Below, piece after piece: positions 11,859-23,480 of a stretch of 26,889 nucleotides of DNA (the stretch's first letter is position 1; each line of letters opens with the position of its first letter). Origin of the DNA: a virus (taxonomy: Duplodnaviria; Heunggongvirae; Uroviricota; Caudoviricetes); the IMG/VR virus record IMGVR_UViG_2537562020_000004; one strand, given 5' to 3'. Below the pieces are notes generated by a model. The model was given only the letters and a program-made list of their open reading frames with translations. It did no database searches and was not told the DNA's origin. Both the position numbers and the translations under genes were made by a program.

Positions 11859-12863
11859 CTAATTTACATGTATGTAGAGTTCACCGTCGCCAGACCAATC
11901 GGGACACTCTAAAACAAGCCCAAACTGCTTGAATATTTCATCAATGATTATTGTTATCTCCCGAAAATCACCAAAACCTGTAATGTGCTGGTCATTAAAC
12001 TTCCCATAAAGATTCTGAAAAGCAATGCCTAATTCTGATAATTGATATCTTATCTTTGAGTTGGATAGTGTAAGGGATAGCTTTGGATCGTATTCTTTAA
12101 TATTGATGTTTAGAGAATGGACATAACCCATCGCATAAGCATAAGAGTTGATGATTAGCCTGATACGTTTTTTTACTTCAAGATACATGTCATTCAGAGA
12201 AATATTACCGTACTTATAACCCCAGATGAGTTTTTCAATCTCGTCAGATACTTCATTTACAACAGTGTCAAGATTCTCTAAAAATAAATCGACAGTTTCT
12301 TGAGGGGCAGACCCCGAAGACATGTAATTAGCGAGATATTCAGACCATGCACGCGTGGCTGAGATAAGAAGCGCGCTACCATACTCGTTGACTGTAAAGT
12401 TTTGGGCTAAGCATGTTAGTAAGTTTTTTTCATGTACGTGCACTAATTCATGGTGAATGCGATGGATGACTGCGAGGTATCCTTCTTCTTTCAGTTTTAA
12501 GAAGCTACCATCATTGAAAAGCTCAACAAAAAAATCAATCGATAGCACAAGGGTATATTCTTCATATAGCCCATCATTGCCAATTTTTGTTACTAACTGC
12601 CCGACGGCTGCGCCCTGTTTGCTATTGGTAAATGAACTAGGGGATTTGTGTTGGTAAGAGGATGTTACCTTTTGAAGAGCTTCACTGAAGTTATAGGAAA
12701 CAATCACGCATTTTAATTTGGAGATATCAAGATTGAGATTCTTTGTTAAAGCTCGGATAGCTTCTAGTGTGAAATTACCGATATTATTTGCTTCTTGCTC
12801 AGTAGCGAAACCTTCGAGGGTTATTTTAAAATCAGTTTCCAAAATATTAATCTCCGCGCCCAT
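11859..12863 (-). CDS. Orphan cargo protein with a zincin-type HExxH motif (putative metallopeptidase-like effector)
   Basis: 334 aa in AT-rich DNA. HELVH at residues 138-142 (nt 12438-12452, within IHRIHHELVHVHE), with Glu candidates 18 and 33 residues downstream. No signal peptide or TM. It sits between cos and Q. Confidence 0.75.
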   Translation of the reverse strand: MGAEINILETDFKITLEGFATEQEANNIGNFTLEAIRALTKNLNLDISKLKCVIVSYNFSEALQKVTSSYQHKSPSSFTNSKQGAAVGQLVTKIGNDGLYEEYTLVLSIDFFVELFNDGSFLKLKEEGYLAVIHRIHHELVHVHEKNLLTCLAQNFTVNEYGSALLISATRAWSEYLANYMSSGSAPQETVDLFLENLDTVVNEVSDEIEKLIWGYKYGNISLNDMYLEVKKRIRLIINSYAYAMGYVHSLNINIKEYDPKLSLTLSNSKIRYQLSELGIAFQNLYGKFNDQHITGFGDFREITIIIDEIFKQFGLVLECPDWSGDGELYIHVN

Positions 12864-12940: not shown

Positions 12941-13987
12941 TTATTCTGGGTTGTCGAGGGTGTACTCTTTGAATCTGATGACCTCCATGCCGAGCCAGTC
13001 ATTTACCTCCCTGAACCTGTCCTGTAGCGGCGACAGCTCGTTGCGCACAAATACCTTTGCCACCTTCTCAACATCACCGAGTGAACCGATATTCTCGGGC
13101 TTGCCGCCCATGAGCTGGAACGGTACGCGGTGCGCGTCCATCAGATCGGCGGCACTGGCCTTCTTGATGTTGAAAAAGTCATCCTTTGTGGCGACCTCGC
13201 TCAGTGGCACGATTTTGATGCCGTCCGGTTTTCCGCCGGGAGCGTAGAAAAACAGGTTCTTAAAGTTGCCGAGCCCTTTTGAGTTGCGCATCGCCTCGCG
13301 CAGCGATTCGACGTCGGTCGCGCTCTGCGCCGGGTCAGTCACATACATGATGTAGCCTGCGTGCGCGCCGTTCTGATAATACTTGCGGCGGAACAGCGTC
13401 GCGGATTCATTCAGCCAAGCGGAATTAAGCGCGCTGAGATATTCCGGCAGACCGTAAATCTCCTGATTAATGTCGGGCTCCAGCAGGTGAAACACGGTAT
13501 CAGGCGCGAACTCGTGCGGCTGGGGGAAGTTTTCCACAAACCAGAAAATCGAATCGTCGACTCCGCGTCGGGTGTATTTGGCTGGCGAGGCCAGCAGTTT
13601 GATTAACTGGCCGGTGACGCTGTGGCGCTGCTCAAGAAAGGCGTTACCGAACACCAGATAATCGAGCGCAAAGCGGCTGAAATCCTGACGGGATAACAAC
13701 GGGTGCGGAATGTAGGTGCTCGCGAGCACGTTACGCTTAACATAAATTGGCGAGCTGTGATGCACGGCAGAGCGCAGGCTCTTTGCCAGCCCTGAGAAGC
13801 TGACCGGCGGCTCGTACCATTTGCCGTTACTGATGCACTCGACGTAATCCAGAATGTCGCGCTTATCGAGTACCGGCACCGGCTCGCCGAAGGTGAACGC
13901 TGTCGTTTTTGGCGGTGCGCTGGCGGTCAGTTGTTGTGGTTTGCTGGCCTTTTGTGCGTTGGCTTTACGGGATTTTTGTTTACCCAT
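12941..13987 (-). CDS. Q: Portal protein (gpQ)
   Basis: 348 aa. Size, position and orientation match P2 gpQ. It is coupled to P (1-nt gap). Confidence 0.9.
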   Translation of the reverse strand: MGKQKSRKANAQKASKPQQLTASAPPKTTAFTFGEPVPVLDKRDILDYVECISNGKWYEPPVSFSGLAKSLRSAVHHSSPIYVKRNVLASTYIPHPLLSRQDFSRFALDYLVFGNAFLEQRHSVTGQLIKLLASPAKYTRRGVDDSIFWFVENFPQPHEFAPDTVFHLLEPDINQEIYGLPEYLSALNSAWLNESATLFRRKYYQNGAHAGYIMYVTDPAQSATDVESLREAMRNSKGLGNFKNLFFYAPGGKPDGIKIVPLSEVATKDDFFNIKKASAADLMDAHRVPFQLMGGKPENIGSLGDVEKVAKVFVRNELSPLQDRFREVNDWLGMEVIRFKEYTLDNPE

Positions 13988-20820: not shown

Positions 20821-21250
20821 CGCTGTACCCCAGCTCAGAAACAACCCCGATATGCTGCGTCTTTTCGCCGACAACGGGCATATCGATTCCCGACTGGCGA
20901 GCTCGCTGTCGTTTGAAAAGGTGTACGTGCTTAACATGGTGGTGACCGACTTTACCGGCGACCTCGATTTGATATTCGTGCCAGTGCAGGCGTGGCTGCG
21001 TGAACATCAGCCGGACATTATGACCACCGACGACGGGCGGGAAAAAGGATTCACCTGGATTATTGATATCAATAACGACGATTCGCTCGATATCAGTATC
21101 AGCCTGAGGCTCACCGAGCGCACGCTCGTCAAAGAGGTCGACGGCGCGCTGCATGTCAGCTATGCCCCAGAGCCGCCGCTGCCTGAGCCGGTGACGCGCC
21201 CGGTCGAGCTGTACGTTAATGGCGAACTGGTGAGTAAGTGGGATGAGTGA
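20783..21250 (+). CDS. R: Tail completion protein R
   Basis: The second ATG (20783) is chosen: MQKHKSLRKAL... aligns with P2 gpR MLKPDSLRRAL. 155 aa. C-terminus is ELYVNGELVSKWDE. Confidence 0.85.
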   Translation: MQKHKSLRKALINAVPQLRNNPDMLRLFADNGHIDSRLASSLSFEKVYVLNMVVTDFTGDLDLIFVPVQAWLREHQPDIMTTDDGREKGFTWIIDINNDDSLDISISLRLTERTLVKEVDGALHVSYAPEPPLPEPVTRPVELYVNGELVSKWDE

Positions 21251-21698
21251 GTTAACCGCGCTACAGGAACGTCTTGCCGGTCTGATTGCCAGCCTGTCAC
21301 CGGCGGCGCGTCGGCAAATGGCGGCTGACATTGCAAAAAAACTGCGCGCCAGTCAGCAACAGCGCATTAAGCGCCAGCAGGCACCTGACGGCACCCCGTA
21401 TGCCGCCAGAAAGCGCCAGCCGGTGCGGAGCAAGAGAGGCCGTATCAGGCGCGAAATGTTCGCCAAACTGCGCAGCACTAACCGCTTTATGAAAGCCAAA
21501 GGCAGCGACAGTGCGGCAGTGGGGGAGTTTACCGACAAGGTACAGCGCATGGCGCGGGTGCATCAGTACGGCCTCAAAGACCGGCCAAACCGCAACAGCC
21601 GGGATGTGCAGTACGAGGCACGCCCGTTGTTCGGTTTCACCCGGGACGATGAACTGCTTGTTGAGAAGCTAATAATCGGAGCTATTAGAAATGGTTAA
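21243..21698 (+). CDS. S: Tail completion protein S (the last ~13 codons lie in AT-rich cargo-derived DNA)
   Basis: 151 aa (P2 gpS 150), overlapping the R stop. Composition drops sharply from ~21655. Confidence 0.85.
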   Translation: MSELTALQERLAGLIASLSPAARRQMAADIAKKLRASQQQRIKRQQAPDGTPYAARKRQPVRSKRGRIRREMFAKLRSTNRFMKAKGSDSAAVGEFTDKVQRMARVHQYGLKDRPNRNSRDVQYEARPLFGFTRDDELLVEKLIIGAIRNG

Positions 21699-21749
21699 TT
21701 AACAAAAGCATGCTAACTCTTGACAATTTGACAACTAGAGTGCACCCTA

Positions 21750-21777
21750 ACGCCAGTCAATAGAGTGCGACTGGCGT
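21750..21777. terminator. Hairpin between convergent S and the cargo gene (no clear T-tract)
   Basis: ACGCCAGTC-N10-GACTGGCGT, a 9-bp perfect stem. Confidence 0.35.
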
Positions 21778-21815
21778 CAAGGAAGATTTTAATCTTTCTT
21801 TAGTGGTTCGATTCC

Positions 21816-22691
21816 CTAGCCTCGTAAATATCGTTTAGTAAATTTCGTGTTTGGTCTGGATGATAGGATTTGTCTTTCTATTTCACTATCACAGTCTATA
21901 TAGTCTAGTGTATTAGCTTCTATAAGTTTGTTCACGTCAATATTTTTTGCATCGATTATGTTGGCATTTCTAAGGTTTGCATTGGTGTATTCCACTTTAT
22001 CCAAATCACACTCTCTGAGTACGCAACTTTTCATTTCCGCATTGGAAAAATCCCCACCATATAAATAGCAGCCTTCAAAAATAACACCGTTTAACTTTGA
22101 ATCCTGAGCTTTAATATTTTTTATTTTACACTTTATAAATTTTACGTTTTTCATTTTGCTCTTGCTAATATTTAATGCCTGGATTGTACATCCAGTGAAA
22201 GAACAGTCTCTTATGTTAGATTTTTCCATATTTAACCCAGATAGTTCTGAGGTTTTAAAGTGTAAGTATTTAATGGTAAAAAGGTCACCCAACTCCATTC
22301 TGGGTATGTCTATATTGAAGACACCTTTATTGTTGAGCTGTCTTATTATTTTTATTTTTTGTATTTTCAAATCAACATTAACGTGCTTAGCTAAGTTTCC
22401 CAAATCCTCAAGAAGTTCATTAATCGTTTCTTTGTTTTGTCTTCTGTATTCAAAGTAATAAAGGATGACACCTAATACAAAAAAATCCAAAATGGATGAA
22501 TTTGCATTTATTAGGAACCCAGACAGGAATGAATCATTGTAATTACCATAGTGTATAGAGGCAAGTGTTACGCCAAATGCATATAAAATAAAAATAATAA
22601 ACACGTGCTTCATTTTGCATAAGGATTGTATTATTGGTTTTATGGCATCAATTTTGTTCATTGCTGCAGCAGCGAAAGATTTAAAAGTCAT
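21816..22691 (-). CDS. Membrane-anchored pentapeptide-repeat protein (cargo at the S-V junction)
   Basis: 291 aa, very AT-rich. Two hydrophobic helices (~res 29-46 and 55-80), a charged linker, then ~20 consecutive pentapeptide repeats (res ~141-250: SNIRD CSFTG CTIQA LNISK ... ANLRN ANIID). Confidence 0.8.
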   Translation of the reverse strand: MTFKSFAAAAMNKIDAIKPIIQSLCKMKHVFIIFILYAFGVTLASIHYGNYNDSFLSGFLINANSSILDFFVLGVILYYFEYRRQNKETINELLEDLGNLAKHVNVDLKIQKIKIIRQLNNKGVFNIDIPRMELGDLFTIKYLHFKTSELSGLNMEKSNIRDCSFTGCTIQALNISKSKMKNVKFIKCKIKNIKAQDSKLNGVIFEGCYLYGGDFSNAEMKSCVLRECDLDKVEYTNANLRNANIIDAKNIDVNKLIEANTLDYIDCDSEIERQILSSRPNTKFTKRYLRG

Positions 22692-22729
22692 TCTATTTTT
22701 AATGCATTCAGATTAAATGGGATTGATGA

Positions 22730-22757
22730 TTTTTACGTGCCCAATGATGCGTGTCAA
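22730..22757 (-). promoter_or_regulatory. Candidate sigma-70 promoter for the pentapeptide-repeat gene
   Basis: The minus strand reads TTGACA (22757-22752), a 16-nt spacer, then TAAAAA(T) (22735-22730). It is ~35 nt upstream of ATG 22691. Confidence 0.4.
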
Positions 22758-22844
22758 TCAGATCTTTGAAAGTGTCTTGCTGTGTGAGCCCCTTTCCAAT
22801 CCCGAAGTTTTGTCTGCAATGAAAAGAAGCGGCATGCTTACATA

Positions 22845-23480
22845 ATGAATACATCAAATATCATTCAAGAGCTTGCCCGTGCAATACGCAACCTCATTCG
22901 CACAGGGGTGGTGACTGAGGTCGATACCGTGCAGGGGCTGTGCCGTGTACAAAGCGGCGGGATCCAGACTACATGGCTGAACTGGCTGACCACCCGAGCC
23001 GGTCGTTCGCGGACGTGGTGGGCTCCCTCGGTCGGTGAGCAGGTTCTGCTGCTGGCAATCGGTGGCGAGCTTGATACCGCTTTCGTGCTGCCGGGTATTT
23101 TCTCCGACGATAACCCCGCCCCGTCTGCCTCGGCGGATGCGTGGCATGTGGCTTTCCCTGATGGTGCGGTCATTGAGTACGAGCCCGAGGCCGGCGCGCT
23201 GACGGCCAGCGGTATCAAAACTGCCGACGTGACGGCATCGGAGTCCATCACTGCAACCGTACCGCTGGTACTGGTGAAAGCCTCGACCAGTATCACCCTC
23301 GACACCCCGGAGGTGATTTGCACCAATAAGCTGACGACAGCGACGCTTGAGGTACAAAAAGGCGGCAAGATGAGCGGCAATATCGAACATACCGGCGGGT
23401 CACTGTCGTCTAATGGCAAGGTACTCCACACCCATAAACACCCAGGCGACAGCGGCGGGCAAACGGGGGCACCGTTATGA
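22845..23480 (+). CDS. V: Baseplate central spike protein V
   Basis: 211 aa, the same length as P2 gpV. The position is conserved. Confidence 0.88.
   Translation: MNTSNIIQELARAIRNLIRTGVVTEVDTVQGLCRVQSGGIQTTWLNWLTTRAGRSRTWWAPSVGEQVLLLAIGGELDTAFVLPGIFSDDNPAPSASADAWHVAFPDGAVIEYEPEAGALTASGIKTADVTASESITATVPLVLVKASTSITLDTPEVICTNKLTTATLEVQKGGKMSGNIEHTGGSLSSNGKVLHTHKHPGDSGGQTGAPL

Follow-up and report, generated by a model that had tools for sequence, protein, structure and literature searches.

A probable RNA-controlled toxin or defence module between genes S and V of a P2-like prophage: a pentapeptide-repeat membrane protein paired with a convergent tRNA-like RNA

What is encoded by the AT-rich DNA between genes S and V of a P2-like prophage, and what could it do for its carrier? 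The question is raised by a viral DNA of 26,889 nucleotides (IMG/VR virus record IMGVR_UViG_2537562020_000004; this whole stretch is called the window), in which S (21243–21698, PF05069 in Pfam) and V (22845–23480, PF04717/PF18715 in Pfam) are separated by 1,146 base pairs (bp). The original prediction, made from the letters of the window, had put this gap at about 1.15 kilobases (kb) of AT-rich DNA, which is borne out by a GC content of 0.29–0.36 over 21700–22800 as against 0.55–0.63 on either flank, and had seen in it a single open reading frame (ORF) on the minus strand. The ORF is real and is the only long one of the island (21816–22691, minus strand, 291 amino acids), but it is accompanied by a second gene, on the plus strand at 21757–21828, for a small RNA that resembles a transfer RNA (tRNA). 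With this RNA gene the unit becomes a two-part module rather than one gene, and our comparisons show that several kinds of mobile element have conserved the module and that its RNA has a tRNA-like fold and a promoter of its own. In its anatomy the original prediction is confirmed; its interpretation is supported in part. As judged from sequence comparison, the insert is probably an undescribed RNA-controlled toxin or defence module.

The RNA gene and its parts are the following, in window coordinates.

21757–21828, plus strand: tRNA-like small RNA gene of 72 nucleotides, which converges on the ORF and shares the final 13 nucleotides of it, including the stop codon
21720–21748, plus strand: promoter of the RNA, with −35 box TTGACA (21720–25), 17-nucleotide spacer and weak −10 box CACCCT (21743–48)
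21763–21768, plus strand: acceptor-like 5' strand, paired with 21819–23
21769–78, plus strand: D-arm-like hairpin, GAC-UGGC-GUC
21779–21800, plus strand: central hairpin of 9 bp with loop UUUA, no anticodon loop
21801–21818, plus strand: T-arm with loop UUCGAUU
21750–21777, plus strand: inverted repeat ACGCCAGTC-N10-GACTGGCGT, which pairs the region of the RNA start with the D-arm and dominates the single-sequence fold

The general order of the element comprises the promoter, a start 7–8 nucleotides after the −10 box, the acceptor-like strand, the D-arm-like hairpin, the central hairpin, the T-arm and the acceptor complement; across variants the D-arm-like hairpin has 3 bp and the loop UGGU, and the central hairpin 5–9 bp and a loop of 3–6 nucleotides. 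The features of a tRNA that are present are a canonical T-arm (GGUUCGAUUCC), a GG in the D-loop and an acceptor stem of 4–5 bp, and the T-loop is invariant save for one G-to-A variant (UUCAAUU, in L058; compared loci are referred to by such numbers where needed). It is not a tRNA gene, as it has no 7-nucleotide anticodon loop and tRNA finders are silent, and it encodes no CCA end. The T-arm motif GGTTCGATTCC is found opposite the 3' end of the ORF, and the C-termini of several homologues of the protein, such as GIEPNSVG or RESNP, are the translation of tRNA antisense sequence.

The predicted start of the RNA lies near 21755. Its −10 box retains A2 and T6, and the −35 box is duplicated at 21720–21734 (TTGACAATTTGACAA), the 17-nucleotide spacing to the conserved −10 box being given from the first copy only. 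The pattern TTGAC[TA]-17-nAnnnT was found in 16 of 16 variants checked, and also in L057 and L058, the latter with a spacer of 16 nucleotides. The distance from promoter to element is constant by group, namely 7–9 nucleotides in the close group and 1–2 in the distant one. Upstream inverted repeats that pair the region of the RNA start with the acceptor 5' strand or the D-arm were also seen in L002, L006, L029 and L046; such repeats at the RNA start could serve as operators, could terminate transcripts that read through from S, or could form an alternative fold. At the other end of the gene a 14-nucleotide unit, CGAGGTTAGGGAAT, which covers part of the T-arm together with the 3' strand of the acceptor, is triplicated in tandem in two loci of Enterobacter type (L019, 4922–4960; L050, 5020–5060), a pattern that suggests slippage or recombination activity at the junction of RNA 3' end and ORF end.

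A covariance model, R1, was built from 15 variants and covariation was determined on an alignment of 17 sequences, the variants numbering 19 in all. This alignment was fitted to the R1 model, which favours structure, and a MAFFT-only alignment gave similar covariation values. The element of this insert scores 65.6 bits with R1 (E about 1e-15). Each element-bearing locus has one copy, always on the strand opposite to the ORF and convergent with it, with 84.8–32.5 bits in 17 variants and with 23.5 and 19.6 bits beside the plasmid homologues (27–31% identity). Standard pairs fill 81.6% of the pair cells as against 46–55% when the partners are slid by 1–3 columns, and the covariation score is 0.366 as against 0.09–0.14 in these slid controls. 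Changes on both sides were found in 13 of the 19 pairs, among them the six that make up the central hairpin and the three of the D-arm, where GAC/GUC changes to GGA/UCC. In 500 shuffles the values observed for the paired fraction, the covariation score and the number of double-change cells were never attained, and the count of double-change pairs was attained in three. In addition, RNAalifold on the MAFFT alignment independently gives the D-arm and the central hairpin, two of the four helices. G-U pairs number 22 and A-C pairs 7, which assigns the RNA to the strand opposite the ORF. The ORF codons that are overlapped vary freely as protein (the tail readings over the overlap include RG*, RGQGIEPNSVGKPT and EVRESNPTQ), and AlphaFold2 has low confidence in the C-terminal tail of the 291-residue protein, so that the nucleotide conservation there serves the RNA. 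Rfam at E<=10 over 21600–22900 returned chance matches only (rseX, TCV_H4) and no match to a tRNA model, and ARAGORN reported no tRNA or transfer-messenger RNA (tmRNA) in the window or in 11 other element-bearing loci. We regard the RNA component as well supported and, being absent from Rfam, ARAGORN and RefSeq annotation, as unannotated. R1 also matches true glycine tRNA (tRNA-Gly) genes with 21–32 bits (L044, 697–790, 32.5 bits; L038, 4309–4370, 21.6 bits), which hints at a possible origin of the element from a tRNA-Gly-like ancestor.

The RNA lies beside the protein gene in 19 sequence variants, down to a protein identity of about 26%, and its contexts comprise P2-like S–V junctions of several genera, a lambdoid prophage, an element resembling an integrative and conjugative element (ICE) and small plasmids with an abundance of genes for restriction-modification and toxin-antitoxin systems. 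The position of its 3' end ranges from 17 nucleotides beyond the stop codon to 52 nucleotides within the ORF, and in 18 of the 19 variants it reaches or overlaps the ORF end (in L053 it ends 17 nucleotides short). Scans of IMG/VR with two non-overlapping motifs of the element, a 20-mer of its 3' part and a 19-mer of its 5' half, returned gene-bearing contigs only. A metagenome scan yielded four true elements, three of them beside an ORF of the family and the fourth (L030) cut by the edge of the locus and continuing antisense to C-terminal codons of the ORF; the other matches are unrelated and share the 20-mer only. As both motifs come from the close Enterobacterales group, it is for this group that these scans test the linkage. 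The type of element found in phage vB_EcoM-613R3 was present in 14 further E. coli genomes, in all 14 with a pentapeptide-repeat coding sequence over or beside it. The element is absent at the P2 orf30 locus and at the insert-less junction of phage Midge and present with the gene outside P2-like phages, from which it follows that the RNA belongs to the gene; the notion that it is a property of the S–V junction was rejected on the same grounds. In the limited collection of literature that was searched, no description was found of the protein family, the RNA or their pairing.

The features of the protein gene, all on the minus strand, are as follows.

21816–22691, minus strand: ORF of 291 amino acids for a two-helix inner-membrane protein with a cytoplasmic pentapeptide beta-helix; stop codon TAG at 21816–21818
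22757–22729, minus strand: sigma-70-like promoter of the protein gene, TTGACA-17-AAAAAT, 10 of 12 matches
22548–22610, minus strand: first transmembrane helix (TM1), residues 28–48, from Kyte-Doolittle hydropathy, charge and an AlphaFold2 helix
22446–22529, minus strand: second transmembrane helix (TM2), residues 55–82, with the family signature FL(V/I)NANSSILDFxxLGVILYYFE; the helix runs into the cytoplasm to residue 100
21942–22274, minus strand: pentapeptide beta-helix, residues ~140–250, ~22 repeats, right-handed, basic (net +6)

The start position conserved among homologues is M27 (22611–22613). The ORF matches Pentapeptide_4 (E=3.9e-19) and Pentapeptide (E=9e-13) of Pfam; with scores above the gathering cut-off and a right-handed beta-helix fold it belongs to the pentapeptide-repeat proteins (PF00805/PF13599). 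It matches phrog_12514, a family of unknown function, over its full length (E=1e-159), and the first homology search gave 27 close homologues with 47–96% identity. Both the membrane helices and the approximately 20 repeats of the original prediction are recovered by hydropathy, with peaks centred on residues 32–40 and 67–69, and by AlphaFold2. The model used was computed from an alignment of 48 sequences (27 close sequences gave a poor membrane part); it has a predicted local distance difference test score (pLDDT) of 91.8 and a predicted template modelling score (pTM) of 0.80, and its layout is an N-terminal helix, TM1 at 28–48, a long helix at 53–100, a linker helix at 106–121, the beta-helix at ~140–250 and short C-terminal helices. 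The N-terminus before TM1 has a net charge of +3, and the distribution of charges predicts an N-in/C-in topology and hence a cytoplasmic beta-helix. The promoter lies at the site where a near-consensus promoter had been claimed, the spacer being counted there with a difference of one base, and its arrangement is also present in the nearest alleles, L012 and L046.

Position 69 in TM2 is D or E in 48 of 48 family members (D69 here), F55 is likewise found in 48 of 48 and G74 in 43 of 48. Acidic residues that stay invariant within membrane helices are a typical feature of proteins that conduct ions or are coupled to them, and we infer from it that the family may be of this kind. The cytoplasmic part is basic, with a net charge of +8 and an isoelectric point (pI) of 9.1 (family median +7 and 9.0). 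Pfam and NCBIfam profiles revealed no nuclease domain, and residues 1–145 gave only chance matches in the PDB, to serotonin transporters (E>2).

Homologues with 48–66% identity occupy the S–V junction of P2-like prophages with the source names Klebsiella, Salmonella, Yersinia, Edwardsiella and Enterobacter, and homologues with 29–36% identity over the whole protein the same junction of more distant P2-like prophages. Further homologues are located at a lambdoid prophage end (source name Citrobacter), in the ICE-like region between ardC and a TraI_2 relaxase plus integrase, and on small plasmids of Psychrobacter and Acinetobacter pittii whose other genes serve replication, mobilisation, restriction-modification and toxin-antitoxin systems. 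Proteins with the N-terminal membrane module are rare: it is matched by only 36 clusters at 50% identity among 1.84 billion representatives, mostly of 230–340 amino acids, and the same architecture was found in all 26 cluster members whose sequences were read. The family is also rare among species representatives, a scan of one genome per species giving just two distant relatives, in Paenibacillus and Umezakia. RefSeq annotation at these sites says only 'pentapeptide repeat-containing protein'.

For such a pair, a role in defence or exclusion is the most sensible class of function that the sequences suggest. Within this class we lean, with somewhat less than even confidence, towards a mobile toxin-antitoxin, abortive-infection or exclusion module in which the RNA would restrain a membrane effector. 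The surroundings of the module (moron loci in prophages; on small plasmids, genes for restriction-modification and toxin-antitoxin systems), the 3'-to-3' complementarity and the nature of the effector fit an RNA antitoxin combined with a membrane toxin. The 291-residue protein would be the membrane-perturbing or ion-conducting effector ('toxin'), and the RNA, transcribed towards the ORF from its own constitutive-type promoter, the cis-encoded 'antitoxin'. Control would be exerted at the level of the messenger RNA (mRNA) in the manner of type I systems, which is favoured because the transcripts would of necessity be complementary at their 3' ends and their convergent overlap recurs across variants. 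The tRNA fold might provide the RNA with stability, defined ends and possibly a sensing role. If the supply of RNA failed, by shut-off of transcription by a phage, by RNA degradation or by loss of the plasmid or prophage, the effector would act on the membrane and abort the infection or kill segregants, so that the prophage would benefit from it as exclusion or addiction cargo. The toxicity, the antitoxin role of the RNA and the trigger are all what we infer from these features.

A number of observations weigh against this proposal. Known type I toxins are far smaller than this protein of 291 amino acids, simple antisense action does not require a tRNA-like fold, and PADLOC-DB v2 contains no family that matches the protein at E<=1. 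RNAalifold prefers another register for the 3' part of the RNA and the acceptor helix has little double-sided covariation, so that the T-arm and the acceptor depend on a tRNA-guided reading, the invariant T-loop and limited covariation. The single-sequence fold of this insert's RNA (z=-0.9) is not thermodynamically unusual, which leaves the case to the comparison between sequences, and the subtype that this insert forms with L012 and L046 is weaker than others, with the poor −10 box CACCCT and a bulged T-stem. Finally, the RNA is absent beside the Gram-positive homologues of L010 (Paenibacillus whitsoniae) and L062 (Bacillus mycoides plasmid pl11) and beside that of L054 (metagenomic, of proteobacterial type), all three of which share the architecture of two helices plus pentapeptide repeats. 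This indicates that the protein can exist without this partner; either these proteins are paired with something else, or the protein does no harm by itself.

The tRNA fold and the basic domain would be better explained than by control at the mRNA level if the RNA acted on the protein itself, as an inhibitory nucleic acid does in the Hailong system, which combines the ion-channel effector HalA with the nucleotidyltransferase HalB (Tan et al. 2025, as summarised in PMC13434031). A tRNA-shaped RNA would then bind the basic pentapeptide domain and keep an oligomeric channel shut; degradation, sequestration or modification of tRNA-like RNAs by a phage, or shut-off of host transcription, would open the channel and cause depolarisation, and the overlap with the ORF would be a mere consequence of tight linkage. 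The conserved T-loop and GG D-loop speak for an RNA folded into an L shape and against a linear antisense RNA, the cytoplasmic domain is basic, TM2 contains the invariant acidic residue, and HalA joins a pentapeptide-type domain, a membrane channel and an inhibitory nucleic-acid ligand. However, the similarity to HalA is confined to the repeat domain (42 bits against a cut-off of 250; Foldseek E=1e-2 only), and the constant convergence of the RNA on the ORF end and its overlap with it are left without an account. We consider RNA gating unlikely, though it is the more novel reading.

It is rather improbable that the protein alone acts, as a membrane factor of superinfection exclusion that would for example block ejection or entry of DNA, and that the RNA element is regulatory or insulating. 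The element would in this case be a processing signal, a terminator, an insulator parting the late O operon, which ends in S, from antisense transcription of the cargo, or a tuner of expression. Indeed, the module is placed between two late operons on the opposite strand, hairpins overlap the RNA start, the P2 record has a terminator annotated at the equivalent place, and some homologues have no RNA. Yet promoter and tRNA features are kept on plasmids, in the ICE-like element and at the lambdoid end, where there is no late operon to insulate, and no U-tract follows 3' of the structure.

There is very little to be said for a functionless relic, that is a decayed tRNA gene or a tRNA-derived attachment site carried along with the cassette. 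Its resemblance to tRNA, the R1 matches to real tRNA-Gly genes and its location at one edge of the module would suit such an origin, but it is kept beside homologues of 26–31% identity with compensatory changes and a conserved promoter, and its conservation exceeds that of the overlapped C-terminal ORF codons. The reading of GGTTCGATTCC as the fossil 3' end of a tRNA or as an attachment site was dropped in view of the 5' acceptor strand, the D-arm, the promoter and the covariation.

Hardly credible, finally, is the DNA mimic of Qnr/MfpA type, tethered to the membrane and acting on gyrase or incoming DNA, that the original prediction had suggested by analogy: structure searches do put the pentapeptide fold closest to Qnr, AlbG and MfpA, but the soluble part is basic and not acidic as in such mimics, the Qnr/MfpA models of NCBIfam reach 28–38 bits against cut-offs of 240–500 (best Qnr 38.3 against 240, MfpA 28.5 against 360), and the conserved RNA partner would be left without a role.

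If the RNA does restrain the protein, the pair would represent an undescribed architecture among toxin-antitoxin and abortive-infection systems, in which a large pentapeptide membrane effector is joined by a tRNA-mimic RNA. The carriers of the module, across Gammaproteobacteria, are prophages of the P2 family, one lambdoid prophage, one ICE-like element and small plasmids. The pair would endow the superfamily of pentapeptide-repeat proteins, which is large and for the most part enigmatic, with a function beyond DNA mimicry, add a further class of tRNA-like RNA that was missed by Rfam, tRNA finders and RefSeq annotation, and provide a function for the long-known, unexplained orf30 variable locus of P2-like phages. 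Even if the functional idea is wrong, the covarying RNA, with its strict linkage to a single protein family, would still stand as a solid new annotation, and the module, with only about 1.1 kb, is tractable.

The prophage is a PSP3/186-like member of the P2 family (Peduoviridae), its R-S-V-W block being 90–95% identical to that of Midge, EtG, PSP3 and many Yersinia phages. The insert, which amounts to about 1.08 kb of extra DNA, is missing from most PSP3/186-like relatives; in them S runs straight to the V promoter region. The allele of this insert was found in 3 of 5,426 complete E. coli genomes, and the proposal of accessory cargo at S–V is supported. The two junctions are the following.

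21655–21698, plus strand: 3' end of S, allele-specific and AT-shifted, the left recombination junction; aligned with Midge and vB_EcoM-613R3
22778–22844, plus strand: right junction of the insert, where homology to insert-less phages restarts, with the TGTGTGAG box at 22781–88 upstream of V

The insert ends on the right at about 22778, immediately 5' of this conserved box, and the P2 record has the activator-binding site of the late promoter of the V operon (pV) annotated at the matching position. On the left, the claim that the insertion supplies the C-terminus of S stands in so far as the alleles have S ends of their own, the final ~15 codons being diverged and AT-shifted relative to Midge, but these codons are still alignable with those of insert-less relatives. 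Each cargo allele (window 21655–21698 as compared with L001 and L056) has its own last ~15 residues of the tail-completion protein S, and in vB_EcoM-613R3, the one phage that bears a homologous insert, the C-terminus of S is different again. The end of S thus tolerates replacement, with recombination points inside the gene.

The original prediction had described S–V as a third, little-studied cargo site, which can no longer be upheld because the orf30 region is already published as variable: together with TO and Z/fun it is one of three regions carrying foreign genes in P2-like phages (PMC3091744), and other cargo has been reported there (PMC6823313). The study of antiviral hotspots by Rousset et al. 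concerns the cos-adjacent locus (PMC9122126); the terms orf30, gpS, gpV and baseplate were searched for in its text and do not occur there. The presence of orf30 at the same junction of P2 was correctly foreseen; Orf30 (NP_046770) is a protein of 261 amino acids encoded on the opposite strand, and its homology to the 291-residue protein was rejected (BLASTP E=5.1). The two have in common the locus, the opposite strand, the AT-richness and hydrophobic stretches, whereas the P2 locus has no tRNA-like element. Several long hydrophobic stretches are seen in the translation of Orf30 (L055, 1440–2225), the reading of which suggests a membrane protein, and cargo on the opposite strand may well recur at this locus. 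That the content of the junction is exchangeable is only part of the picture, since the family of the 291-residue protein is found there in P2-like prophages of several genera with 29–66% identity over the whole protein, which points to a long-standing association.

Two further ORFs of the window lie outside the S–V junction. The first (2511–3356, plus strand, 281 amino acids, 32% GC) is located between a host GGDEF/CHASE8 gene (370–1596) and the prophage integrase (3473–4513, minus strand); it has no Pfam match and a weak PADLOC match to a HEPN-type model (RTasHEPN, E=1.3e-4), and it may be a further defence-type cargo gene at the prophage edge. The second (11859–12863, minus strand, 334 amino acids, 37% GC) has neither a Pfam nor a PADLOC match and adjoins an ORF of 348 amino acids (12941–13987, minus strand) which we take, from gene order alone, to be the portal gene; if so, the 334-residue ORF would occupy the cos-adjacent hotspot of P2-like phages (Rousset et al.).

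How does the module compare with known systems? As to the RNA, it has an acceptor-like stem, a canonical T-arm and a GG D-loop and lacks a decoding anticodon arm, all in common with the tRNA-like non-coding RNAs of bacteria, to which the tRNA-like domain of tmRNA and the Y-RNA-like YrlA RNAs belong; it differs from these in being much smaller, in having no Rfam match at E<=10 and in being tied to one protein family on mobile elements. Qnr, MfpA and AlbG are soluble acidic DNA mimics of ~180–220 amino acids, whereas the protein of this insert is membrane-anchored, basic and paired with an RNA gene. A type III toxin-antitoxin system (ToxIN-like) was considered and rejected, as the element is single-copy, the triplication of 14 nucleotides in L019 and L050 aside, and the protein is without a nuclease domain.

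Type I toxin-antitoxin systems with convergent, 3'-overlapping antisense RNAs are represented by TxpA/RatA and BsrG/SR4 of Bacillus prophages. The module shares with them a membrane-protein gene and a convergent small RNA with overlapping 3' ends, sigma-70-type promoters for each, and residence on prophages or plasmids; a cis-encoded antisense RNA overlapping the toxin transcript is predicted here from the gene arrangement. In contrast, the type I toxin is typically a peptide of fewer than 60 amino acids, as compared with 291 and a cytoplasmic domain of about 200 here, and the conserved tRNA-like signature of the RNA goes beyond what antisense action needs.

HalA of the Hailong system is likewise a membrane effector with a pentapeptide-repeat-type cytoplasmic domain; it is the best NCBIfam match of the 291-residue protein and the sole membrane-channel defence effector among its matches in the PDB search. 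Membership in this family was nevertheless rejected, given the low score with its model (NF051894), the restriction of the match to the repeat domain and the lack of HalB; neither HalB nor any other second protein gene was found in the insert or beside homologues in any context examined. The match in HalA is located at residues 82–154 of 371 (9nyi_A), these match positions being the only source for its domain order, and the protein described here has two N-terminal helices followed by a long beta-helix. In Hailong a constitutively made nucleic acid holds the membrane effector off, and this ligand is a template-free oligo-dA; the candidate ligand here would be a genome-encoded tRNA-like RNA. 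The invariant D69 and the basic domain are compatible with, and not evidence for, an oligomeric channel that is closed by a nucleic acid. Should RNA gating nonetheless turn out to be true, the module would parallel the DNA-gated Hailong guard with RNA in place of DNA, and it would be the first among defence systems to use a tRNA mimic as bait.

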